Assembly: GCA_043778225.1 (NCBI GenBank)
Contig: JAYWGM010000104.1
Span: forward strand, 1-12,179
DNA: 12,179 bases
DNA from: Deinococcales bacterium
GTDB lineage: Bacteria > Deinococcota > Deinococci > Deinococcales > JAAFIG01
Reading direction: 5' to 3'
The position numbers were made by a program, and so were the translations under genes. Each line of letters starts with the position of its first letter. Position 1 is the first letter of the stretch. The notes beneath the pieces were generated by a model. It was not told the DNA's origin. It searched no databases and saw only the letters and a list, made by a program, of their open reading frames with translations. Shown here piece after piece: positions 121-11,930 of the stretch.

Positions 121-153
121 AAGTACGCTCGTGTGACGCTGTATGAATAACCT
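121..153 (+). promoter_or_regulatory. Type B box (AAGTACGCTCGTGTGACG) + 9 nt + TAACCT -10-like hexamer
   Basis: 121-141 is identical to 2208-2228. ACGCT repeats with an 11-bp period (125, 136), TAACCT is at 148-153, and a GAGG ribosome-binding site at 161-164 precedes the ATG at 170. Confidence 0.65.
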
Positions 154-169
154 AAACCCAGAGGTGATT

Positions 170-301
170 ATGACCAAGGAAATTTTGACCGAAACTCGAG
201 CCAAATACGAGCCGCCGATTCTCGAGAAATTTGTTTTTATGGAAATTACAGGCATTAGTTTACCAGTCGGCACAAACATTCTCGAGGAGGAAAGCAAATG
301 A
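170..301 (+). CDS. 43-aa peptide 1 with lasso-leader-like YxxPxL motif: MTKEILTETRAKYEPPILEKFVFMEITGISLPVGTNILEEESK
   Basis: Hand translation. It has a GAGG ribosome-binding site, its stop overlaps the next start (ATGA 298-301), and its paralog at 2257-2388 shows synonymous differences. Confidence 0.8.
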   Translation: MTKEILTETRAKYEPPILEKFVFMEITGISLPVGTNILEEESK

Positions 302-2097
302 AGCATCTTCTCGTTTTACTTGGCATGACAGCTTTACTTGCCTGTCAGCAAAATCAGTTTTTGCCTGTGCCAACTCGAGTGCTGGGGGTTACTGCCTTGC
401 CATTTGGAGATTCTATTCGTTCCCAAGCAGCTATTGCCGATGCTCAGATTGCTTTTGTGCCGCTTGGACTGGCGAGTGTACTCGATGATGCTGCCTTTAA
501 CTCGCGGTTTATTCGCCGTAGTTTTAGGATTACCAACAATTCAGGTGGTATTCTCACCAACCTGATTTTCCATGCCTACAATGCCCCAGCCAACAGCCAA
601 GGCACAGCCTTAAAGGGCATCACGAATTTTGCTGGGCAACCTGTGCTTAATGCCCAAGAAGCCATTCCTAAGCACGGCATGACGGGCAATGCTTCGTTGA
701 TTGTTGACTCGAGTGCTGCCGATTTACAATTGTTTAGCGAAGCTACGGTTAATGCTGCTCAGACCGAGGCGACCAGTATTTTAGGCGCAAACGATTACTT
801 ATTGGCTTATGGTTTTTTGGTGCAGCAACGCAATGGCGATACCGATTTGGACAGTAACCCACGCACCATAGCGGCTGGTGAGACTGGCACAATTACGATT
901 TCGTATCAGTTGCCCAAAGACTCGAGCAATGCCTATTCGTTCGTGGCGACTTTTAGCCTTCGTACCACCAGCGATGTGGATTTGGTGCAAACCCAAGAAG
1001 AGCAATTGGCTGGTACAACCGCCGGACAACTCGGACTGATTAACTTTAATAAAGTGACTGTACCCGGTGGTCAGGCTTGCGGTATCGTCGGGTCTGGGAT
1101 AACGTTGCGGTTCTTAAATCAATTGCGAATTGCGGGTAAAGTTGGAGGGACTGGCTCAGATACAGCCACCTATGCTTTTAATACGCCAAGTGTTGATGCC
1201 ATTGTGCCAATTAGTTTTTCAACCGAGGCAGTCTTCCGCGAGACCGTTTTGAACGCACCAGACGGAACAGGCATTTGTTTTACACAAAGTTTTGATCTAA
1301 GATTCGCGCCAGTAATAACCTTGGCGAAGAACATCACCATTTATGGCGGCAATAAAACGCTTATTTCTGGCGGTCTTGTGAATCGAATTTTTGAGATTGC
1401 CAGTGGTTTTAAGGTTGCCTTGTACGGCTTTACCATCGCCAACGGTACAAGCAGTACCTCAGCCACAAATTTTGGCGGTGGAGCAATCAGCAACGCTGGT
1501 CACTTAACGCTGGGTGGAATGAAATTCAGTAACAACCGCTTTGCAGGACTTGACTTTGCCACAAGCCCCTTCACACCAGCCAAAGGCGGCGCAATTTATA
1601 ACACTGGGGTACTTAACATTGAGTACAGCGAATTAAAATCGAATACTGCCCAAGCAGGCAGAGGTGCGTTTGGCACGAATGCAATTCTAGGTAGTGGAGT
1701 ATCAGGAACCAATGGAGAACTTGGCGGGGCTGCCTCTGGTGGAGCGATTTTTAATGCAGGTACACTGCAAATAAACTCGAGCCAAGTCTCGGGTAATTCG
1801 GCTATCGGAGGTCGCGGTGGAATTGGTGGTCTCGGGACAACTGTTATTGATCCTAGTGACGGACCACCATTCTTTGGATTTTTGTGCAATGAGCCTTCAG
1901 GCGTTGGTGGGCTTGGTGGTAACGCCATTGGCGGTGGAATCTTCTCGAGTGCCGCCTTTACCAACAATGCCAATGTAACAACCAACACGGTAACAGCCGG
2001 AATTGGTGGTTTTGCTGGTGGACCAAATCCTTGTGCATCACCTGACACCAGTAAGGCGGCTTCTGGGACTGCCAGCAATCCCAATGTTGCACCTTAA
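298..2097 (+). CDS. Lipoprotein 1 (599 aa): shared N-terminal domain plus Gly-rich GGAI/Pmp-like beta-helix repeat domain
   Basis: Signal peptide with lipobox LLAC (Cys16) and a GAGGAGG ribosome-binding site. C-terminal repeats are GGGAISNAG, GGAIYNTG, GGAIFNAG and GGGIFSS, with an FSNN motif. Confidence 0.85.
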   Translation: MKHLLVLLGMTALLACQQNQFLPVPTRVLGVTALPFGDSIRSQAAIADAQIAFVPLGLASVLDDAAFNSRFIRRSFRITNNSGGILTNLIFHAYNAPANSQGTALKGITNFAGQPVLNAQEAIPKHGMTGNASLIVDSSAADLQLFSEATVNAAQTEATSILGANDYLLAYGFLVQQRNGDTDLDSNPRTIAAGETGTITISYQLPKDSSNAYSFVATFSLRTTSDVDLVQTQEEQLAGTTAGQLGLINFNKVTVPGGQACGIVGSGITLRFLNQLRIAGKVGGTGSDTATYAFNTPSVDAIVPISFSTEAVFRETVLNAPDGTGICFTQSFDLRFAPVITLAKNITIYGGNKTLISGGLVNRIFEIASGFKVALYGFTIANGTSSTSATNFGGGAISNAGHLTLGGMKFSNNRFAGLDFATSPFTPAKGGAIYNTGVLNIEYSELKSNTAQAGRGAFGTNAILGSGVSGTNGELGGAASGGAIFNAGTLQINSSQVSGNSAIGGRGGIGGLGTTVIDPSDGPPFFGFLCNEPSGVGGLGGNAIGGGIFSSAAFTNNANVTTNTVTAGIGGFAGGPNPCASPDTSKAASGTASNPNVAP

Positions 2098-2207: not shown

Positions 2208-2240
2208 AAGTACGCTCGTGTGACGCTGCACTAATAACCT
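2208..2240 (+). promoter_or_regulatory. Type B box + 9 nt + TAACCT -10-like hexamer
   Basis: The box is identical to 121-141, TAACCT is at 2235-2240, and AAACCCAGAGGT follows as in the first copy. Confidence 0.65.
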
Positions 2241-2256
2241 AAACCCAGAGGTAAGT

Positions 2257-2388
2257 ATGACAAAAGAAAAATCTGAAACTCGAGCCAAATACGAGCCGCC
2301 AATTCTCGAGCAGCAAGCAGCTTATGTGGTTTTGACGGGCATCAGTTTACCAATTGGTACAAACATTCTCGAGGAGGAAAGCGAATGA
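2257..2388 (+). CDS. 43-aa peptide 2 with lasso-leader-like YxxPxL motif: MTKEKSETRAKYEPPILEQQAAYVVLTGISLPIGTNILEEESE
   Basis: Hand translation. It has a GAGG ribosome-binding site, an ATGA overlap at 2385-2388 with lipoprotein 2, and is a paralog of 170-301. Confidence 0.8.
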   Translation: MTKEKSETRAKYEPPILEQQAAYVVLTGISLPIGTNILEEESE

Positions 2389-5300
2389 AAAAGTTTTTAC
2401 CAATTCCATTACTATTGTTTGCCTTGCTTGCCTGTCAGCAAACACAAGTCCAACCCATGACGCAAAACCTTGGCACACTCGAGTTGCGGCTTGATAATTC
2501 TGGAAGCACTAAAGGACAAGTGGCTCGAGTGAAAGTTTCGGGGCTACAAACCCAAGGGACGCTGCGTGAAGCCGATGTGACCTTTACAGCTTTGACGACC
2601 GTTGCCACACAAAACGATGGGGCGTTTGATTATGTACAAGCGCAGTTTAGCGTCTTAAACTCGAGCAGTACACCATTTGCTAATTTAACCTTGTACGCCG
2701 TTGCAAAGTCTGGCAACATTGCTGGTACAGCCATTAAAAGCATTACTAATTTTGGCGGACTTACCGATGTCAACGAGCAAACCCGAATTGCCAAGTTGGT
2801 CACGGCTACGCATGGCTTAAACATCTCGAGTACGGGTGCGAGTTTAATTTCTGGGCGTGAGGATATGCAGCTTTTTACGCCAAACGATGTGAATGCTTTA
2901 CAAGCTGACCCTGCTTTGACTTCAAACGGTTTCTCGAGCAACGATAAAGTGCTTGGCTATGGTTTTGTGGCGCGGCGTTGTGTTCCAAATTGCAGCAGTC
3001 CAACTTCGTTTGTTCGGAGTATTCCGGCTGGACAAAGTGGGTTAATCACGATAGCCCTCAGAATTCCACGCAGCAGTGGAACGGCGTACAACTTCATCAT
3101 GACTTTTGCGGTGGTGGATGAACCCATCAATCGAGTCACGCGCAGTGTGTACCCACCTGAAACCCTCAGCGATGCCGAAAGTCGTTTGGTTGGTTTTGGG
3201 GCAAGTTCGAGCAATGAAATCATGCAGTTGGGTTTGGCTCGAGCCACTACGCCAAGCAACAGTTATGTCAATCAAGGTACAGATTTTGTGGCGGTCTCGA
3301 GCAACTCAGAAGATTACACCGCACTTGGTTTGGGACGTTTAAGCAGTGGATTTGATCATTCTTGTGCTTTGACAGCCGTGGGTGCAGCCTATTGTTGGGG
3401 TGGAAATGGATTTGGACAATTGGGCAATAACAGCAAGGACGCAAGCAGCATTCCAGTGCCAGTTGCTGGAAATTTATTGTTCTCGAGTATCAGTGCTGGT
3501 GGCAATACAACCTGTGGTCTGATGCTGGCTGGTGCAGCCTATTGTTGGGGTAGCAATACCGACGGTGGTCTTGGTAATAACAGTCAAACCCAAAGTTTAA
3601 TCCCAGTACCTGTGAGCGGCGGTTTGGTGTTCTCGAGTATTGGGGTCGCTGATACGAATACTGTTTGTGGTTTGACGACTTTTGGTATAGTCGCTTGCTG
3701 GGGTAGTAATGATCGCCAGCAGCTGGGTTTTAACTCAACTGTTCCCAGAAGCCTTACCCCTGTGCTTGTGGCTGGAGGAAGCCAGTTATTCTCGAGCCTG
3801 AGCGTTGGTGGGGCGCATTCGTGCGGCTTGACCGCTTTGGGGGCGGCTTACTGCTGGGGGTTTAATGGCAGTGGGCAATTGGGGGTTGGTACATCTGGTA
3901 CAAACCTTGGGCAACCCACGTTGGTTGGCAATAGTTTAACTTTCTCGAGTATTTACACTGGAACGTACCAGACTTGTGCTTTAACTTCGGATGGTACTGC
4001 CTATTGCTGGGGTCGAAATGATTTTGGTCAACTTGGAACTGCTAACAACACCCAAAGTACCTCGCCGGTGCTGGTCAGTGGCAATCTGCGCTTCTCGAGG
4101 CTAGATGGTGGCGAACAACACACCTGTGGTTTAACCCCGACCAGCACCTTGTACTGTTGGGGTCGTAACAACAATGGCGAATTGGGTACGGGGAACACAA
4201 CCACTACCAATACACCCACTTTGGTTGGTGGTGGGCTGGTATTTGCTGGGTTTTCGACTGGCTGGTTTCACACTTGTGCCATCACCCCAACGGGTCTAAA
4301 GTATTGCTGGGGCAGCAATACAGCCGGGCAAATTGGTAATAACGCAATTTTTGATACCAAAGCACCACGACCAGTCTCTGGTAATCTGACCTTCTCGGGT
4401 GTTTATGCCAACGATAACCATAGCTGTGCTTTAACTTTACTCGACAAAGCCTATTGTTGGGGTACGAATGGCAGTGCGGGGTTACTTGGTAATAACAGCA
4501 CCGTCAATAGCCCAGTGCCTGTCGAAGTCTCGACCACCATAGAATTCTCGAGTTTAACCAGCAATGGCTTTAATCAAACTTGTGGCTTGCAAAAAACCAC
4601 GGGTTTGGCGTATTGCTGGGGGAGTAACACCTATGGTCAATTGGGTACAGGCAATACCACCCGAAGCCTGATACCTATAGCGGTGGTTGCACCAGTTGGA
4701 AGCAGCACCCCTTTGGCTTTCTCGAGTTTGGCGGCTGGCGATGACCACATTTGTGGTATCACCCCGACTCAGGATTTGTACTGCTGGGGTCGGGATAATT
4801 CTGGGCAACTTGGAGACGGGGGAACAAATACCGACAGCAGTCGCCCTGTTAAAATTGGCACGGCTTTTACGGCTGTGACTGGTGGTATAGCCCACACTTG
4901 TGCCATCAGCCCAAGCCCAAATCCGGGCAGTCTGTACTGCTGGGGTCAGAACCGTAGCGGACAACTTGGCGATGGTACAACCGTTGCCAAAAACATACCG
5001 ACGCTGATTGGTTCTGGTTTCTCGAGTGTCAGTGCTGGGAATGGACACACCTGCGCCATACAAACAATCAGTTCGGTAGCAACGACTGTCTGTTGGGGTC
5101 TGAACAGCTTTGGTCAATTGGGTACAGGCAATAACACCATAAGCCTGACCGCCACACCTGTTTCTGGTAATTTTGCTTTTAGCACGGTTGTTGTTGGCGA
5201 AAACCACACCTGTGGTTTACTGACCAATGGTACAGCTTACTGCTGGGGTGATAACGGAAACGGACAAATAGGGAACAACAACACAGTCAATGTCAACACG

Positions 5301-5486
5301 CCAGCTTTGGTCAGTGGCAACTTGAGTTTCTCGGGTTTAAGTGCTTCATGGAAAAATACTTGCGGCATAACCACCACAAATACAGCCTATTGCTGGGGCG
5401 ATAATATCAACGGAAAAATCGGCTTTGTGCTTCAAACCTTGTTCAGTACCCCAACTCGAGATATGGCTTTGAGTTTCAAGCTCTAA
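2385..5486 (+). CDS. Lipoprotein 2 (1033 aa): shared N-terminal domain plus 14 RCC1-type repeats (probably two 7-bladed propellers)
   Basis: Lipobox LLAC (Cys17). From about residue 316 to the end there are 14 repeats of the form HxC...YCWGxNxxGQLG...PxxV, counted by CWG. Confidence 0.92.
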   Translation: MKKFLPIPLLLFALLACQQTQVQPMTQNLGTLELRLDNSGSTKGQVARVKVSGLQTQGTLREADVTFTALTTVATQNDGAFDYVQAQFSVLNSSSTPFANLTLYAVAKSGNIAGTAIKSITNFGGLTDVNEQTRIAKLVTATHGLNISSTGASLISGREDMQLFTPNDVNALQADPALTSNGFSSNDKVLGYGFVARRCVPNCSSPTSFVRSIPAGQSGLITIALRIPRSSGTAYNFIMTFAVVDEPINRVTRSVYPPETLSDAESRLVGFGASSSNEIMQLGLARATTPSNSYVNQGTDFVAVSSNSEDYTALGLGRLSSGFDHSCALTAVGAAYCWGGNGFGQLGNNSKDASSIPVPVAGNLLFSSISAGGNTTCGLMLAGAAYCWGSNTDGGLGNNSQTQSLIPVPVSGGLVFSSIGVADTNTVCGLTTFGIVACWGSNDRQQLGFNSTVPRSLTPVLVAGGSQLFSSLSVGGAHSCGLTALGAAYCWGFNGSGQLGVGTSGTNLGQPTLVGNSLTFSSIYTGTYQTCALTSDGTAYCWGRNDFGQLGTANNTQSTSPVLVSGNLRFSRLDGGEQHTCGLTPTSTLYCWGRNNNGELGTGNTTTTNTPTLVGGGLVFAGFSTGWFHTCAITPTGLKYCWGSNTAGQIGNNAIFDTKAPRPVSGNLTFSGVYANDNHSCALTLLDKAYCWGTNGSAGLLGNNSTVNSPVPVEVSTTIEFSSLTSNGFNQTCGLQKTTGLAYCWGSNTYGQLGTGNTTRSLIPIAVVAPVGSSTPLAFSSLAAGDDHICGITPTQDLYCWGRDNSGQLGDGGTNTDSSRPVKIGTAFTAVTGGIAHTCAISPSPNPGSLYCWGQNRSGQLGDGTTVAKNIPTLIGSGFSSVSAGNGHTCAIQTISSVATTVCWGLNSFGQLGTGNNTISLTATPVSGNFAFSTVVVGENHTCGLLTNGTAYCWGDNGNGQIGNNNTVNVNTPALVSGNLSFSGLSASWKNTCGITTTNTAYCWGDNINGKIGFVLQTLFSTPTRDMALSFKL

Positions 5487-5519
5487 AGTGGTGCGAATCC
5501 TGCTCGAGGCTAAAACCCT

Positions 5520-5551
5520 CGTAACGGCTCGTAACGGCGGCTGCGTAAACT
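5520..5551 (+). promoter_or_regulatory. Type A box + 9 nt + TAAACT -10-like hexamer
   Basis: 32-bp exact copy of 2143-2174, with TAAACT at 5546-5551, upstream of lipoprotein 3. Confidence 0.65.
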
Positions 5552-5586
5552 CGAGCGATGTTGCTACGATACTCGAGGAGTAATTT

Positions 5587-8500
5587 ATGCTCATGAAACC
5601 TTTTTTACTTGTTCAAAGTGCTGTTTTTGTTGTTCTGGTCGGTTGTACGTCCATACCTACACCAGTCGATTCCAATGATAAAGTCCTCGGGCGGCTCGAG
5701 GTGGTTTTCTCGAGCGAAAGTGCAGCACCTAAAGCAGTGTTCTCGAGTGCCAAACTCGGTACGGCGGCGCTAACCGTGCAGCCAGAAGCATCGTTTACGT
5801 TTGTACCACCAACCAGTGTGCTGACTCGAGATGCGTCTGGTATTCGTACCCTTTCGGCAACTTTTGGAATTACTCAGACCAGTGGTAGCACCCTACAAAA
5901 TATCATGCTGGTGGCGTACAACCAAGCTGATAACAATGTTGGTGGAACTGCCGTGAAAAACATTTTTACCTTTGGCGGTTCTGCCTCGAGTAGCAACGCA
6001 CAGAGCATTAAACCAGCCCACGGAACGAATGGCTCGTTAGCGGTTGACCCTTTTCGGGCTGACATGGGTATTTTGTTACCACTCGAGGCAAATAATTTAA
6101 CAGTAGCGGCGCGTAATGCTGGTGTGATTGGCGCATCCGACACCGCCCTCGAGTACGGTTTTATTGCCCGTAGAAGTGCCACTTCGCACCTAAGAAGCAT
6201 TGCCAGTGGCAGCACAGGGCAAGTCACCTTGGCGGTACAGCTTCCTACAGCGCAAGATAATGCGCCAACCACTGCGCCGTATCGTTTTGCCTTGACTTTT
6301 ATTGTCACCACCGACGACACCGATATTGTTACCCAGTCACTCGAGGAGCAAAATAACGATGCCTTGGTTTCGGCTCGAATCGCTGCGATTGGTAAGAGTA
6401 CCACGGTGCGACTTTTGCGCGGCAGTTCTTTTACAGGACGACCACAACAACGCTTGTGTGGGACGCGCTTGGCAACTGGTAACGCGGCGTTCCTGACCGC
6501 CCCGAGTTTGGGTTTTCTGGGTGCGAGACTTAATCCAGACAGTACGTTAACGGCTGATTTCGATGCGCCGTTGGACTCGAGCAGTTTAGGAAATGGTTTG
6601 GTGATCCAGGGTTTACGAAGCGGTAAGCGCCTTGCGGGTCTGAGCTTGGTTGGTAACAGTGTCCAGTTTACACCAACCAGCCCCACCCAAGAATTCAGTC
6701 ATGGCGAGGAGGTGCTGCTGAGTGTTACCAATCAACTTCGCAGTGTCGAAGGTGGTCAGTTATGCGGACAACCAGCCCAAAGTAAATTGTTTCGCATGGA
6801 CTCGAGCCGCAAAGATCAGGTGCTGAGTTACCGCCGCCCAATCAAAATAGCCATGAATGCAGGTACGCTTGGTGGGCAACGAATCAGTGCTTTAGCTGAC
6901 CTGAACAACGACGGTAAAGCCGATTTGGTCACAATAAGTATGCTCGAGAGTAAAGTTTTTACACGCCTTGGTACGGGTTTGGATAATACTTATTTTGGAG
7001 CGCTGACCACAACCAACTTAATTGAGCGACCCAAAGATTTGGATATTGCCGATATGAACAGCGATAGTCTGTTGGATTTGGTGATTCACAATCTTGGCAG
7101 CCCAAGTTCGTTCAGTATTTTGCTTGGAAATGGGCTTGGGGGTTTCTCGAGCCTGACGACCTTTCCTTTGACTGGAACAGGTAATGAGGACGTTTTAGCG
7201 CTAGGTGATGTGACAGGCGATGGTAAACCCGATCTGGTCACACTTGAAAATACATCAATTCGCTTAGAACTTGTGGTTGTTACGCGGGCAAATAGCACCA
7301 TAGCTGGGGCTTTTATACCCACTTTTGGGGCAATTGGTAGACAAATCATTACGATAAATTCAACTACCAATACGTCCCCACCTTCACCACACCGGCTGGT
7401 CATTGATGACCTCGATTTGAACGGGGTTGCAGATACGATCATTGCAATACAAAAAACTTTTGAGGGAAATAATGATTTTACGCTGTTATACAAGTCAATG
7501 AATGGTGGTGCATTCCAATCGCTTGATGCTTTACAAAGTCAAAGCTGTACAATTGCTACAGCAAATTTAGATAACGACCCGCAAAAAGAAATTGGCTTCG
7601 CTTGCAATGGGCAAAACTCCGCCATTCGCTTTCCAAACAATAGTCTTACTTTGCTGCAAAAATCAAATTTGCTCATACTTGAAAACAGTGTATTTGCTGA
7701 CCTAAACGGCGATGGTAAAAAAGAATGGATTACGGTTGGTATCAACAATACCAGTACCTTGGCACAAAGTTCACTCGAGGTGCGTTACTCAGCCGAAGGG
7801 GGGTTATTTGGATTCAGCACCATGATTCCAGGTTTTCTTACCCCACAAGGAGATAATGGCAACCAAAATTTATTTGGGGTTGCTGCGGCTGACCTGAACG
7901 GCGATGGAAAATTAGAAATCGTGGCTGGTGACGATGACGCGGGCGCTCAGGTCTGGCGGCACGAAAAAATTGGTTCGTTCAGAAAAATTTCGGTCAGTGC
8001 ATTAAACCCTCGAGACATCATGGCGGCTGATTTAACCAACGATGGAAAAACCGATATTGCCGTGGCAAACGTACAAACCTCTGGTATTTACTTGCACCGA
8101 GGTACAGACAATGGTTTTGCAACCCAAGAATCCATTGCTGTTCAATCCAGTCAAGTGACCCTGGCTTCGGGTGATGCCAACAATGATGGTCGGGTAGATG
8201 CTTTTGTGGCTGCCGGTTTTGGCTTGGGAATTCAACTCTCGAGCAGGACAGGTGGTTTTACTGCGGGTACAGGTACAGCCGAATCTTTTACTATTCAAGG
8301 CTTAGCTGTCACAGACTTTAACAATGACGGTAATTTAGATGCAATTGTCAGTGGTTTTGGAACTGCGCCGCTTCGTATCCTGCTCGGTGATGGAACAGGT
8401 GCATTTACCACTGGAACAACCCAAGCCAGCACCGATGTCAGTCAATTGATGGTCGCCGACATCAACGCCGATGGCAATATGGACGTACTGGCATTACAAA

Positions 8501-8964
8501 GTACCCAAATCGCGGTGTTCTTAGGTTCAGGAGATGGTAATTTAACCCCTGCCACACCAATAACAACCACGGCTCGAGCCTTTGCTCTAACCGACATCAA
8601 CGCCGATAACACCCCTGATATTATTTACGCCACTGGTACAAACCTCGAGTACCGCTTAAATAGCGCACGTGTTTTCGGCAGTCCTCAAGTCATCAATAGC
8701 CCATTTCAACCTGTTACATCCAACAGCCTAGCCATTGGTGATTTTAACGGTGATGGTTTCAATGACTTGCTTGCTACCAATGGCAATAATGTCATGCTTT
8801 ATGGTGGGCTTTCGACAGGTGGTTTTGCCGTGTTTGCAACAGCTTCTGAGGCTGGTTTAAGCCCAAGCAAATTACAAGCTGCCGATATTAACCAAGATGG
8901 CTTACTAGATGCGTTTGTCACTAACATAACTGAAAATTCGATTACCTTGCTGCTCCGTTTCTAA
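5587..8964 (+). CDS. Lipoprotein 3 (1125 aa; start may be ATG 5593): shared N-terminal domain, Ig-like domain and 14 FG-GAP/VCBS repeats
   Basis: Lipobox LVGC. An Ig-like segment reads FDAPLDSSSL...VQFTPT...GEEVLLSVTNQLRS. Fourteen DxNxDGxxD-like motifs run from DLNNDGKAD to DINQDGLLD. Confidence 0.9.
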   Translation: MLMKPFLLVQSAVFVVLVGCTSIPTPVDSNDKVLGRLEVVFSSESAAPKAVFSSAKLGTAALTVQPEASFTFVPPTSVLTRDASGIRTLSATFGITQTSGSTLQNIMLVAYNQADNNVGGTAVKNIFTFGGSASSSNAQSIKPAHGTNGSLAVDPFRADMGILLPLEANNLTVAARNAGVIGASDTALEYGFIARRSATSHLRSIASGSTGQVTLAVQLPTAQDNAPTTAPYRFALTFIVTTDDTDIVTQSLEEQNNDALVSARIAAIGKSTTVRLLRGSSFTGRPQQRLCGTRLATGNAAFLTAPSLGFLGARLNPDSTLTADFDAPLDSSSLGNGLVIQGLRSGKRLAGLSLVGNSVQFTPTSPTQEFSHGEEVLLSVTNQLRSVEGGQLCGQPAQSKLFRMDSSRKDQVLSYRRPIKIAMNAGTLGGQRISALADLNNDGKADLVTISMLESKVFTRLGTGLDNTYFGALTTTNLIERPKDLDIADMNSDSLLDLVIHNLGSPSSFSILLGNGLGGFSSLTTFPLTGTGNEDVLALGDVTGDGKPDLVTLENTSIRLELVVVTRANSTIAGAFIPTFGAIGRQIITINSTTNTSPPSPHRLVIDDLDLNGVADTIIAIQKTFEGNNDFTLLYKSMNGGAFQSLDALQSQSCTIATANLDNDPQKEIGFACNGQNSAIRFPNNSLTLLQKSNLLILENSVFADLNGDGKKEWITVGINNTSTLAQSSLEVRYSAEGGLFGFSTMIPGFLTPQGDNGNQNLFGVAAADLNGDGKLEIVAGDDDAGAQVWRHEKIGSFRKISVSALNPRDIMAADLTNDGKTDIAVANVQTSGIYLHRGTDNGFATQESIAVQSSQVTLASGDANNDGRVDAFVAAGFGLGIQLSSRTGGFTAGTGTAESFTIQGLAVTDFNNDGNLDAIVSGFGTAPLRILLGDGTGAFTTGTTQASTDVSQLMVADINADGNMDVLALQSTQIAVFLGSGDGNLTPATPITTTARAFALTDINADNTPDIIYATGTNLEYRLNSARVFGSPQVINSPFQPVTSNSLAIGDFNGDGFNDLLATNGNNVMLYGGLSTGGFAVFATASEAGLSPSKLQAADINQDGLLDAFVTNITENSITLLLRF

Positions 8965-8969
8965 GTGGG

Positions 8970-9003
8970 TTCGTAACGCTTCGTAACGGCAGGAGCTTAT
9001 CTT
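8970..9003 (+). promoter_or_regulatory. Type A-like box (TTCGTAACG-C-TTCGTAACG) + 9 nt + TATCTT hexamer, oriented antisense to the regulator
   Basis: Direct repeat at 8970-8978 and 8980-8988. TANNNT at 8998-9003 has the same 9-nt spacing as the other five copies. Confidence 0.5.
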
Positions 9004-11846
9004 GTTTTTTTGGTCAGCATCGGCTCGAGTTTTGGTAAGCCTTGGGCAAAGGCAATCGCTTGGTCTACGCTCATGGCTTGCCCTTGTTGGTAGGCAGCCT
9101 CGGCTTTGGCTTGCCCTAGGGCAGTTCTGGCTTGGTTCTCGAGTTGCAAAAAATGCTGGTACTGATGCTCGGCAAGTGGTGAATCAAGGCGCTCGAGAGC
9201 GACTGTTGTTGCCCCAAAGAGTGTCAGGGCTTGGGCTTGGTAGCCTTGGCGAACCAGTGGTTGGGTCAAAACAAGCATGGCGTAAATGGCATCACGGTAA
9301 CGTCCATCGCGCAGGAGTGGCAGCGCCTCGAGCAGGTGTTGTTGGGCTAAAGCATCGTTGCCTTCGGCTATTGCAGCTTCGCCTAAGCCGTATAACGAAG
9401 CGCCGATGTTGGTTTGGTTGCCAAGCGCTCGGGTCAAGGACAGGCTTTGTTCGATCAATTGGTATTTTTCGGGGCTGGGTGGCAGGATGTCGGCAATGTT
9501 CTGCAAAGCAATGGCTTGTCCGTTGCGGTGTCCACAAATGTTGGCGCATTCAAGGCTCTGTTCAAAGTATTGCTTGGCAATTATTTTGTCGTTGCGGTCA
9601 CAGGCGATTCGTCCAAGGTCATTCAAGGTGTTGACCATGCCATGAACATCATTTTCTTGGCGTTGGATTTGTAGGGCTTGGCGGATGCGAATTTCGGCGG
9701 CTTGAAGTTGTCCGCGCATGATTGCATTTGCGCCCCACCACCCAAGGGCTTTGGCATGAAGCACAGGCTGGTCGAGTATCGAAAAAATTTTGATCGCATT
9801 CTCGAGGTGCTGACAGGCTCGGGAGTACAGTGCCAAAAAATCACCTTGGATACCCAATGCCAATTCGGCTCGAGCCAATAACAAGGCATCGCTGGGTGGT
9901 TGGTACTGGGCAATCGCGGTTTGAAGGGCGTTCCAGGCTTCAAGGGTGCGTGAACGCAAATGAAAATAGCGTGGTAAAGCTGCCAAGGTTCGCAACACCA
10001 AAGCAGGGTCGGTGTTGTATTCAAAGACCGCCATGATATTTTGGTGCTGACTGGTGACTTTGTTGAGCCAAGTGATTTGTTGCGGTCCGCCGCGCAGGGC
10101 TATTTCGGCTTGCTCGGCAAAATGGGCAAAATACTGGGCGTGTGTGCGTTGCAGCTTCTTCAAAGCTGGTTGCTCGAGTTTTTTAAGCGCATAAGTTTGT
10201 ACCAAAGGGTGCAGTTCGTAACGCCCTCCATGTTGATGCAGCAATGACCGTGCCAGCAAACCGAGCAGTGAACGCGCCGAGACCCCCATACCTTCAAGTG
10301 CGGCTGGTCGGTCAAAACCACCTTGGAAGACACTGATGGCGCTCAGGGTTTGGCGCAAGTCATCCTCGAGTAATTCCCATGAATGCTCAAAAACCGTGCG
10401 TAAAGACCGATGCGCCTCGGGAATTTCTGGCTCGTTGACCTCGAGCCATTCGGCATTGGCTTCTAAACCTTCAATCAAGGCTTCTAAACTCAGTTCGCCC
10501 AGCCAAGCGGCAGCCAGTTCTAACCCAAGTGGTAAACCCTGCACAAGTTGACAGATTCGTAAAATACCCGCCAAGGTGTTGGAGTTTAAGGTAAAACCAC
10601 CACGCCGCCGTGCCGCCCGTGCCACAAAAAGTTGTACTGCACTGGCAGCCCGAGCAGCTTCGAGGTCTGGGTTATCTGGGTAAGCCAATCCCCCTAAGGT
10701 CAATACCCATTCGTTGGGGATGTTCAAAGCCACTCGAGAAGTCAAAAGCAAAGTCAGTTGCGGGGCTGCTTCCAGCCAAGCATTGAGCGGTTCGGCAAGC
10801 CCACCAAGATGCTCGACGTTATCCAGCACCAAAAGGACACGACTTTCTTGGAAGTGTTGACCGATTTGTAACCACGGGCTACTGTCAGCCCGTAAGTTAA
10901 AGCCAAGCACAGCAGCGACTGCCAAAGGCACATCATCTGGGTTGCGAATATCGCGCAGGGTCAACCAAATGGCACGGTCAAATAGGTTTTTTTGCTGCTC
11001 GAGAATTTCTTTGGCAAGGGTGGTTTTGCCGATGCCACCGAGTCCACGCAACATCATTAAACGTGTGCCTGCCATAAATTGAGCGCCTATCTCGGCTTGT
11101 TCGGCTTGACGACCGACAAATCGCAAATTTGTATCTGGCTGTACTTGTCCTTTTAAGGTTGCAACCAGCGCCAGTGTTTCGGGTTGAGGTTCGACCCCTA
11201 AATCGGTGCGTAAACGCGCTTGAAACAATTCAAATTGGCGCAGCGCCACTTGGTTTGAGCCAAGCACTGTGGCGTGTTTGAGTAAGCCATGCAAGGCTTC
11301 TTCGTTGTATGGGTCAAGCTCGAGTAACTGCACCAATAAATTTGGCAAACTGGCATCTGGGCTTGAATCGAGTTCTTGGATTCGTCCAATCAGGGCTGTG
11401 CGCCAATCTTCATGCAGTGCGGCACGTTCGGTCTCGAGCCATGCTCCAAAAGCAGTCGGGGTTAAAAGCCCCTCGAGTAACGCACCGCCGTAGACCGCCA
11501 ATGCTTTTTGCCAATCGGCTTGACGAATCGCGGTTCTAAATTGGCTCACATCGGATGGCACACTTAAACGCAGTGCCTTGGTATTGCCCTCTATCGCCTT
11601 AGCCCACTTGAGGTTTTTAGAGCGGTGCAAAAGTTGCCGTAAATTATTACGAGCATCGGACTCGGGTACATCTGCCCATAAAAGCGTGGCGATTTCGGCA
11701 CGTTCGACCCAAGTTTCGGCTGCCGCCAAATAGGCGAATAACCACAGCATTGGGCTGGGTGGAATCGCTGTTTGATCAACCCAGCGTGCCGAACCCAACA
11801 AGCGCAAAGGCACGGCGGTCACAGGCAAAGCAAAAATCCCTGTCAT
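8997..11846 (-). CDS. AfsR/SARP-family large ATP-binding transcriptional regulator (wHTH + BTAD + NB-ARC-like P-loop + TPR repeats)
   Basis: wHTH motifs RAEIATLLW...NNLRQLLHR; BTAD motifs DVSQF...ALAVYGGALLEG...LELDPYNE...LGVEP; Walker A GLGGIGKT, Walker B LLVLDNVEH and GLPLGLELAA; C-terminal TPR-like helices. I placed the start at ATG 11846 because TATCGT lies 7 nt upstream. The open frame extends to 11912. Confidence 0.9.
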   Translation of the reverse strand: MTGIFALPVTAVPLRLLGSARWVDQTAIPPSPMLWLFAYLAAAETWVERAEIATLLWADVPESDARNNLRQLLHRSKNLKWAKAIEGNTKALRLSVPSDVSQFRTAIRQADWQKALAVYGGALLEGLLTPTAFGAWLETERAALHEDWRTALIGRIQELDSSPDASLPNLLVQLLELDPYNEEALHGLLKHATVLGSNQVALRQFELFQARLRTDLGVEPQPETLALVATLKGQVQPDTNLRFVGRQAEQAEIGAQFMAGTRLMMLRGLGGIGKTTLAKEILEQQKNLFDRAIWLTLRDIRNPDDVPLAVAAVLGFNLRADSSPWLQIGQHFQESRVLLVLDNVEHLGGLAEPLNAWLEAAPQLTLLLTSRVALNIPNEWVLTLGGLAYPDNPDLEAARAASAVQLFVARAARRRGGFTLNSNTLAGILRICQLVQGLPLGLELAAAWLGELSLEALIEGLEANAEWLEVNEPEIPEAHRSLRTVFEHSWELLEDDLRQTLSAISVFQGGFDRPAALEGMGVSARSLLGLLARSLLHQHGGRYELHPLVQTYALKKLEQPALKKLQRTHAQYFAHFAEQAEIALRGGPQQITWLNKVTSQHQNIMAVFEYNTDPALVLRTLAALPRYFHLRSRTLEAWNALQTAIAQYQPPSDALLLARAELALGIQGDFLALYSRACQHLENAIKIFSILDQPVLHAKALGWWGANAIMRGQLQAAEIRIRQALQIQRQENDVHGMVNTLNDLGRIACDRNDKIIAKQYFEQSLECANICGHRNGQAIALQNIADILPPSPEKYQLIEQSLSLTRALGNQTNIGASLYGLGEAAIAEGNDALAQQHLLEALPLLRDGRYRDAIYAMLVLTQPLVRQGYQAQALTLFGATTVALERLDSPLAEHQYQHFLQLENQARTALGQAKAEAAYQQGQAMSVDQAIAFAQGLPKLEPMLTKKTR

Positions 11847-11930
11847 TGAATCCACGATAATCAGTATGCAACTTTTGATCACTTTTGCCAAATACGATTG
11901 GCTTTGTGCCAATCCTCGGCTGGTGTCTAA

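Follow-up and report, generated by a model that had tools for sequence, protein, structure and literature searches.

The stretch of DNA analyzed here, hereafter the window, is the whole of contig C104 (JAYWGM010000104.1, 12,179 nucleotides) in the 4.03-Mb, 107-contig, 89%-complete assembly GCA_043778225.1 of a Deinococcales bacterium; other contigs of this assembly are cited by their C numbers. Close to its beginning, on the forward strand, lies a small open reading frame (ORF; positions 170–301, ATG at 170–172, stop codon TGA at 299–301) which encodes a peptide of 43 amino acids (aa), MTKEILTETRAKYEPPILEKFVFMEITGISLPVGTNILEEESK, and is the subject of this report. The ORF has a ribosome-binding site of its own, GAGGTGA (161–167, forward strand), and its stop codon overlaps, as ATGA, the start codon (298–300) of the gene for lipoprotein 1 (298–2097, forward strand; 599 aa, starting MKHLLVLLGMTALLAC, lipobox LLAC), the GGAGG ribosome-binding site of which sits inside the final codons of the small ORF. 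The peptide can be divided into a leader part, residues 1–28 (170–253, forward strand; M...KYEPPILEKFVFMEITG), where YEPPIL, an instance of the motif YxxPxL, is followed 14–15 residues past its Tyr by Thr-Gly, and a core-like part, ISLPVGTNILEEESK (254–301, forward strand, stop codon included), which contains the motif S-phi-P-phi-G-T of the family described below. The ORF, its ribosome-binding site, the ATGA overlap, YEPPIL and the Thr-Gly pair are all as a preliminary description of the window had read them from the sequence.

The ORF is real, and a second copy, which the preliminary description had missed, is present in the same window (2257–2388, forward strand). The paralogous peptide, MTKEKSETRAKYEPPILEQQAAYVVLTGISLPIGTNILEEESE, also comprises 43 aa and has the same start context, with GAGGTAA at an equal distance from the ATG, and an ATGA overlap with the gene for lipoprotein 2. 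A longer frame of 52 aa, starting at 143, was considered as the true form of the first ORF and is unsupported because the paralogue has no ATG at that place and no ribosome-binding site precedes it. Likewise, a programmed frameshift that fuses the peptide to the lipoprotein was dropped, since the signal peptide would end up buried within the protein.

The two copies differ, in their conserved flanks, mainly at synonymous third positions (six such changes outside the variable codons 20–26, counted by eye), both indels are multiples of three, and the ratio of nonsynonymous to synonymous substitution rates (dN/dS, Nei-Gojobori) is 0.35; for four further pairs of the family, among them orthologues from two more genomes of the genus, it is 0.12–0.33. 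Judged from this substitution pattern, the ORF at 170–301 is protein-coding and under purifying selection. The alternative that the frame is not a gene and represents a non-coding leader RNA or a promoter duplicated along with the lipoprotein might appeal to the nucleotide identity of the two copies, which reaches about 50 nt upstream of the ATG. However, the indels in threes, the predominance of synonymous or conservative changes, the dN/dS values of 0.12–0.35, the conservation of the protein sequence throughout a phylum in which nucleotide composition varies greatly, the prediction of homologues as genes by gene callers of several sources and the lack of an Rfam match in positions 1–2500 at E <= 0.1 all speak against this alternative, which we regard as scarcely credible. 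No family in Pfam or NCBIfam matches either window peptide, and a DNA search of the taxonomic family of the host for a locus orthologous to the first ORF recovered only the window paralogue and an unrelated terminal repeat.

Searching the 93,892 stop-to-stop frames of the genome, in all six frames, with a hidden Markov model (HMM) of the paralogues and a regular expression identified 15 family members at E <= 2e-3, on contigs C3, C17, C28, C33, C48, C49 (two, in tandem), C50, C60, C72, C75, C89, C92 and C104 (two). The family consensus is K-x-x-Y-x-x-P-x-L-E-x(8-9)-T-G-[IVA]-S-[LF]-P-[IF]-G-T; the tail that comes after it is acidic and variable. Directly after the peptide gene, 12 of the 15 members have a gene for a lipoprotein with the same N-terminal domain (the N-domain), nine of these with the 4-nt overlap, one at 8 nt, one at 1 nt and one with a 38-nt gap. 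The first of the two C49 peptides precedes the second one, not a lipoprotein gene; this tandem pair (C49, 10364–10677, reverse strand) is itself ATGA-joined and stands ahead of one lipoprotein. The C75 peptide is followed by an unrelated small lipoprotein, and the C60 peptide is located downstream of an N-domain ORF. Nearly every copy in this genome uses CTCGAG for the Leu-Glu pair of the motif, a palindrome that occurs 24,877 times in the 4.03 Mb (the next palindromic hexamer occurs 2,854 times), for instance at 196, 221 and 283 of the window.

The lipoproteins coupled to these peptides share the N-domain, about 230 aa after the lipobox (27–38% identity among most paralogues; signal peptides and lipoboxes were judged by pattern reading), and vary in what comes after it. 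In lipoprotein 1, the N-domain is an N-terminal beta-sandwich at about aa 20–230 (355–990), and the C-terminal part was read as beta-helix-like in the earlier reading. Lipoprotein 2 (2385–5486, forward strand; 1033 aa, lipobox LLAC) continues with RCC1 repeats and lipoprotein 3 (5587–8964, forward strand; 1125 aa, lipobox LVGC), which has no small ORF of its own, with FG-GAP repeats; elsewhere, the C-terminal modules include ExeM/NucH nuclease, DUF3616 and Ig-like domains. A peptide lies directly upstream of 12 of the 22 N-domain ORFs of this genome, and three further ones, C104c and two on C3, come after a gene of the same strand that is itself led by a peptide. The AlphaFold model of the N-domain is a beta-sandwich (pLDDT 70.9, pTM 0.73). 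When this model was compared with known structures, Foldseek retrieved nothing from PDB at E <= 1e-3, VIA-align reached a best Z of 6.7 with generic beta-sandwiches (WSSV envelope proteins, SadB, carbohydrate-binding modules, YjhA/YcdA-type lipoproteins), and all scores in ESM Atlas were below 0.9; these comparisons gave no function and no specific structural relative. Similarity among the peptides correlates with that among the N-domains (Spearman 0.33, 55 pairs), a value reached by 25 of 2000 label permutations; a contact between peptide and N-domain argued from this correlation was rejected because the latter is too weak and too confounded by co-duplication.

The family extends well beyond this genome. 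An exhaustive profile search of 1.84 billion proteins yielded 180 representative clusters at E <= 1e-3, nearly all of 35–80 aa, and a word-indexed search yielded 31 proteins, the sole informative name being ‘MAG: hypothetical protein [Deinococcota bacterium]’; the named members that were looked up are each a ‘hypothetical protein’, of Deinococcus soli, of D. xianganensis and of one metagenome-assembled genome labelled Pleurocapsa. In a sample of 301 genomes of the phylum, 17 have peptide matches, which are multi-copy in 7 of the 9 other genomes of the host's own taxonomic family (up to 15 matches) and mostly single-copy outside it. The preliminary description would have been contradicted had homologous small ORFs been missing upstream of homologous lipoproteins in other genomes; this is not the case because an ORF with a signal peptide and lipobox follows the peptide in 24 of the 27 hits in other genomes (by eye, from printed N-termini), in 13 of these 24 loci with the 4-nt overlap between the two.

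Conservation is high in the leader half of the peptide. Among 169 small proteins collected, 167 have the motif, and in these the Tyr is conserved in 99%, the Pro three residues after it in 100%, the Leu at +5 in 99% and the Glu at +6 in 95%; the Thr is found at Tyr+15 in 109 of the 167 and one residue earlier in most others, including the peptide at 170–301, in which the Thr is at Tyr+14 and the linker falls one residue short of the length that most members have. The leaders of lasso peptides, according to PMC10368454, have the register Tyr(-17), Pro(-14), Leu(-12) and Thr(-2), i.e., YxxPxL plus a penultimate Thr. The Tyr, Pro, Leu and Thr of the family fall on these same positions, so that the proposal of a lasso-type leader motif made in the preliminary description holds against this source. 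The Gly(-8) position is also retained in the Deinococcus variants, which read Y-x-x-P-x-[LV]-x-x-x-G-x-W-x-x-x-T-L-x-x-[ST]-phi-P-phi-G.

The core half is another matter. If the core is counted from the second residue past the Thr, Asp or Glu is found at core positions 7–9 in 18 of the 167 members, and only 7 combine it with G/A/S/C at position 1, that is, could form a lasso ring. In the peptide at 170–301, the core ISLPVGTNILEEESK has its first Glu at position 11, or at 12 when counted from the Gly (GISLPVG...); the absence of Asp/Glu at positions 7–9, already pointed out in the preliminary description, thus applies whether one counts from Gly or from Ile, and the peptide lacks what defines a lasso core.

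The tight coupling invites the explanation that the ORF is chiefly a regulatory upstream ORF, the translation of which gates the lipoprotein through the ATGA overlap, the released peptide having little or no function. Stop and start codons overlap at nearly every member, the ribosome-binding site of the lipoprotein lies within the end of the small ORF, and 10 of the 22 N-domain lipoproteins manage without a small ORF. A device of this kind has, however, no need of the amino acid motif that is kept across genomes of 49% to 71% G+C, with dN/dS of 0.12–0.35, at positions that fit a leader bound by a RiPP recognition element (RRE; RiPP, peptide made on ribosomes and then post-translationally modified), nor would a pure coupling device need to cluster, as this ORF does elsewhere (see below), with RRE, kinase and B2 genes. 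We therefore consider a purely regulatory role improbable.

The window itself encodes no RRE, peptidase or cyclase, as the preliminary description had correctly stated. That description had also suggested a search of the genome for RRE and lasso genes acting in trans: an RRE and a B2 peptidase were indeed found, on C64 and C44, and a cyclase only in a separate cluster on C92. On C64, a gene for an 83-aa PqqD/RRE protein overlaps the start of a gene for a 297-aa P-loop protein. The former matches PqqD (E 9e-16) and the NCBIfam model of lasso PqqD (1e-14, below the cut-off), and its best solved relatives in PDB are TbiB1 (1.7e-7) and TfuB1 (5.3e-6); it is predicted to be a stand-alone B1-type RRE that binds leaders. 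The 297-aa protein, a candidate HPr-kinase-like enzyme, has the Walker motif GESGRGKTT and matches, at the profile level, HPr kinases (1.8e-7, over about 44 residues), and its orthologues show weak matches to Hpr_kinase_C or PEPCK. The third protein, of 437 aa and encoded on C44, is a fusion of a nucleotidyltransferase (NTP_transf_5, 5e-28) with a B2 domain (Transglut_core3, PF13471, 1.5e-14; lasso B2 NF033537, 2e-12, above the cut-off), hereafter NT-B2, in which the catalytic Cys and His are kept, as seen in the alignment with the B2 protein of C92.

In other Deinococcota, these genes are found next to each other. In four genomes outside the family of the host, the single peptide hit lies 0.3–7 kb from NT-B2 on the same contig. 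The RRE, kinase and NT-B2 genes occur together in 12 of 16 further loci centered on NT-B2; an N-domain lipoprotein is encoded in 8 of the 16, and in 6 of these 8 a small ORF with a lasso-type leader precedes the lipoprotein gene. For example, in D. psychrotolerans (NZ_CP034185.1), genes for a kinase-like hypothetical protein and a PqqD family protein are followed by divergent genes for a 63-aa hypothetical protein, which is the peptide, an extracellular ExeM/NucH endonuclease and a ‘lasso peptide biosynthesis B2 protein’. In D. radiodurans R1 MP1 (NC_000958.1), the B2 gene DR_RS15790 is flanked by N-domain lipoproteins, and two unannotated small ORFs of the leader type lie upstream of DR_RS15795, a nuclease, and DR_RS15800, an Ig-like lipoprotein; one such small ORF occupies 8721–8885 (reverse strand) of the NC_000958.1 stretch examined (L076). 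Judged by gene order, the peptide, lipoprotein, RRE, kinase and NT-B2 form one cluster in these bacteria. Two of the loci (L075, G067:C148, and L072, G163:C3) also contain, within the same stretch, a common run of ORFs, which in L075 encode, by Pfam, a phage-tail-collar domain protein, a periplasmic-binding-like protein, GNAT and DUF6916; the likeness of L072 to this run comes from printed ORF N-termini only.

Co-occurrence in the 301-genome sample, cross-tabulated by hand and to be read with the relatedness and non-independence of the genomes in mind, points in the same direction. The kinase is present in 16 of the 17 peptide-positive genomes (72 of 301 overall) and NT-B2 in 15 of the 17 (100 of 301 overall), the tallies of both enzymes including one unpublished genome (G251); of the peptide-positive genomes, the two that deviate have fragmented or incomplete assemblies. 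Moreover, the N-domain was detected in 59 of the 72 kinase-positive genomes compared with 22 of the 229 kinase-negative ones. Two genomes of the host's family have no match for peptide, kinase or NT-B2, and one of them has one N-domain match.

This distribution also bears on the possibility that the peptides are true lasso precursors, cyclized in trans by the lasso cluster of C92. That cluster (positions 4626–11220 of the C92 stretch L020; a family cassette lies 35 kb away on this contig) is complete and canonical, with the order B2, B1, cyclase, precursor, PqqD-TylF methyltransferase, glycosyltransferase-like protein and HPrK-like kinase; its cyclase (NF033535, E 1e-119, below the family cut-off) is the only one of this genome, and its own precursor has the leader W-V-A-P-Q-L-E and Ala1/Asp9. 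The C50 and C89 members of the peptide family, which combine Asp at position 9 with a first residue that is Gly or Ala (by eye), speak for this possibility. Nevertheless, the ring-forming residues occur in 7 of the 167 members only and the peptide at 170–301 has neither of them, and a search with NF033535 gave nothing at E <= 1e-5 in four of the five genomes with the system, a closed genome among them, the fifth having a sub-threshold match 620 kb away. Furthermore, the annotation of the two Deinococcus records described above includes neither an Asn-synthetase-like gene nor an ABC exporter, and no cyclase is among the matches in the other fetched loci, which were screened with four query models only. 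Cyclization by the C92 enzymes is thus very improbable for the family as a whole.

Comparison with known systems places the conserved gene set close to a particular type of lasso pathway. BsfK is a B1-dependent kinase that phosphorylates Ser3 of the core, and the nucleotidyltransferase of the pseudomycoidin pathway adds a hexose to the phosphate (PMC10368454 and PMC8498205), the nucleotidyltransferase being fused to B2 in some lasso clusters (PMC8498205). The paeninodin, pseudomycoidin and Bradymonas bsf systems resemble the set described here in the YxxPxL leader at -17 to -12 with a penultimate Thr, in the discrete B1 RRE and B2 transglutaminase-like peptidase, in an HPr-kinase-like enzyme, a candidate one here, which there needs leader and B1 and is able to act on core Ser3, and in a PF14907-type nucleotidyltransferase, there sometimes fused to B2. 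Unlike in those systems, the lasso cyclase and the ABC exporter are not part of the conserved set; the cores are without an acceptor Asp/Glu, mostly start with Ile, Val or Leu and are conserved over the first seven residues; and the precursors are coupled to lipoproteins, present about 15-fold in this genome and unlinked from the enzymes. The lasso cluster of C92 belongs to the same organism and has the same leader type (WxxPxLE) and separate B1 and B2, but it has its own cyclase and an Ala1/Asp9 precursor, whereas the peptide family is also found in genomes without a cyclase match. Multi-precursor RiPP systems, such as the prochlorosins, use one enzyme set for many dispersed, leader-sharing precursors with hypervariable, stand-alone cores. 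One enzyme set and dispersed precursors are found here as well; however, the start of the core is conserved and the precursors are tied to lipoprotein genes. In the literature covered, which excludes subscription journals, neither a cyclase-less B1/kinase/nucleotidyltransferase-B2 system nor lasso-type peptides paired with lipoproteins are described.

Taken together, these data suggest that the ORF at 170–301 encodes the ribosomal precursor of a linear peptide, made by a lasso-derived pathway without a cyclase and tied to surface lipoproteins, a reading to which we assign a probability of roughly 0.6 from the comparison of sequences and gene neighborhoods. We propose that the RRE would bind the YxxPxL leader and present the peptide; that the kinase-like enzyme would modify the conserved Ser/Thr at core position 2–3, by analogy with the action of BsfK on Ser3; that the nucleotidyltransferase domain would extend this phosphate; and that the B2 domain would cut after Thr-Gly, to give a linear, acidic, modified peptide. 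In the organism studied here, a single enzyme set would serve the roughly 15 scattered precursor-lipoprotein cassettes, several of them possibly under SARP/STAND activators. Given the 1:1 coupling of peptide and lipoprotein, the product might act together with the shared N-domain of the lipoproteins in the envelope.

Several observations weigh against this precursor reading. Conservation of the first seven core residues is unusual among RiPP cores. A signal sequence is missing from the peptide and a transporter from the conserved cluster, so that the product would be cytoplasmic, whereas the lipoprotein is exported; moreover, 10 of the 22 N-domain lipoprotein ORFs have no peptide directly upstream. 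The assignment of the kinase comes from a weak similarity centered on the P-loop, and Pfam matches nothing in the C64 copy. Enzyme and peptide genes lie apart in this genome, so that the link between the two leans on synteny elsewhere and on co-occurrence in related genomes. The HMM detects peptides in 17 of 301 genomes, far fewer than the 100 with NT-B2 and the 72 with the kinase, possibly because the peptides of Deinococcus have diverged, an explanation that is only partly shown. Finally, one tryptic peptide of the D. radiodurans small ORF is absent from the six proteomics supplement files of PMC9650054.

The region upstream of the ORF and the distribution of regulators pertain to another explanation of the peptide, as a small adaptor or regulator, and are described here before it is weighed. 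Three direct repeats, ACGCTC, ACGCTC and ACGCTG, with spacings of 13 and 11 bp (112–117, 125–130 and 136–141, forward strand; by eye), form a candidate activator box of the SARP type that would overlap the -35 region, and a candidate -10 element, TAACCT (148–153, forward strand), starts 6 nt past the last repeat. SARP promoters are recognized by direct repeats with an 11-bp period that abut the -10 element (with an 8-bp rule) and by a BTAD regulator nearby. Four family operons have the arrangement [ACGnCTnTnTG][ACGCTG]-N6-TAnnnT ahead of the ribosome-binding site, with the hexamers TAACCT, TAACCT, TAGGGT and TAGAGT at the equal spacing of 6 nt (by eye); the 11-bp pair recurs at 2208–2228, in front of the paralogue, and upstream of the C49 and C89 members, and its place in the C17 and C28 operons is taken by an 11-bp unit that contains TAACG[GC] and is repeated three to four times. 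A scan with the sigma-70 consensus found no site upstream of either small ORF, the number of sites equaling the chance expectation. A regulator with BTAD, NB-ARC and TPR domains (SARP/STAND type) is encoded at 8997–11912 on the reverse strand, convergent with the lipoprotein operon, and STAND-type regulators (AAA_16 or NB-ARC, with or without BTAD and TPR) flank five cassettes in all (the window, C17, C28, C50 and C92); a two-component pair flanks a sixth.

The promoter and the peptide gene appear to be exchanged as a unit. Positions 2208–2389, comprising the promoter-like region of the second cassette (2208–2256, forward strand) and the paralogous peptide gene, share 82% DNA identity with 121–302, and this identity stops at the start of the lipoprotein gene. 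The two peptides are 74% identical, compared with 38% for their N-domains, and lipoprotein 2 is nearest to the C49 lipoprotein (64% identity over the N-domain), the peptide of which has 30% identity with peptide 2. Because the identities of peptides and N-domains disagree and the DNA identity ends at the lipoprotein start, the peptide module moves independently of its lipoprotein.

In this context, the peptide could be a small adaptor or regulator which is not a substrate and docks through its leader-like motif on the RRE, on the regulator or on the nascent lipoprotein; it might, for instance, be a chaperone that helps the shared N-domain to be exported or assembled, or signal back to the SARP/STAND activator. 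The strict 1:1 translational coupling with the lipoprotein, the conservation rather than hypervariability of the segment past Thr-Gly (S-phi-P-phi-G-T), the conserved five-gene set without a transporter and the STAND/BTAD regulators that flank five cassettes would all fit such a role. However, what the peptide is conserved with in other genomes is an RRE, a kinase-like enzyme and a peptidase that keeps both catalytic residues, which together look like a set for the processing of a substrate; the Deinococcus clusters examined are without regulators; and the independent exchange of the promoter-peptide module (peptides 74%, N-domains 38% identical) argues against a co-adapted pair of chaperone and client. 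Binding of the peptide to the BTAD/NB-ARC/TPR regulator, as proposed in the preliminary description, finds no support, given that such regulators are found beside only five of the family's loci here and beside no Deinococcus locus examined. We thus consider an adaptor or regulator unlikely and retain the precursor reading.

The remaining intergenic parts of the window contain several repeats. The sequence GCTCGTAACGGCGGCTGCGTAAAC recurs at about 2140–2170 and 5505–5545, in the intergenic regions after lipoproteins 1 and 2; it has CGTAAC repeats, which resemble the 11-bp TAACG[GC] repeats upstream of the C17 and C28 cassettes, and may represent another kind of activator box. At about 2177–2205, between lipoprotein 1 and the promoter of the second cassette, a perfect inverted repeat, AGGCACTCGAG-N7-CTCGAGTGCCT, corresponds to a terminator-like hairpin without a T run. 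The first 60 or so bases searched, at 60–120, are 98–100% identical to stretches near the ends of C103, C81, C38, C94, C101 and C97, and 82–100% identical to stretches, mostly near contig ends, of three related genomes; this segment, for which Rfam has no match, resembles the border of a multi-copy element at which assemblies break off.

As to the function of the product, we can offer a tentative suggestion, in our estimate rather doubtful: RiPP machinery might have been repurposed for the envelope, the leader-guided linear peptide, phosphorylated or nucleotidylated, being a dedicated partner of the N-domain, as a ligand, a complementing strand or a covalent tag, that controls anchoring to, or release from, the outer layers of Deinococcus. 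If so, this would be a post-translational system with a ‘peptide key’ for each lipoprotein, of a kind unknown in any bacterium. D. radiodurans would be the tractable model for direct tests, given that its R1 MP1 carries the system beside a well-studied extracellular nuclease. DR_RS15795 is probably DRB0067 because it is the sole ExeM/NucH nuclease in the MP1 stretch examined; DRB0067, which would thus be a member of this lipoprotein family, is the only extracellular nuclease of D. radiodurans and is reported to depend on Sec, to be bound to the hexagonal layer and to be set free after irradiation (PMC3554781).

At the level of the family, a conserved group of small proteins has been missed or left unnamed by annotation, all the named members seen being hypothetical proteins. 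Lasso biosynthesis is defined by its cyclase, and across this phylum the parts for recognition, leader cleavage and modification by kinase and nucleotidyltransferase appear to be kept with neither cyclase nor exporter. If the proposed reading is correct, the peptides would constitute a new, linear branch of lasso-derived peptides, and the pathway would link RiPP biosynthesis to the biology of lipoproteins, a connection for which we found no precedent.

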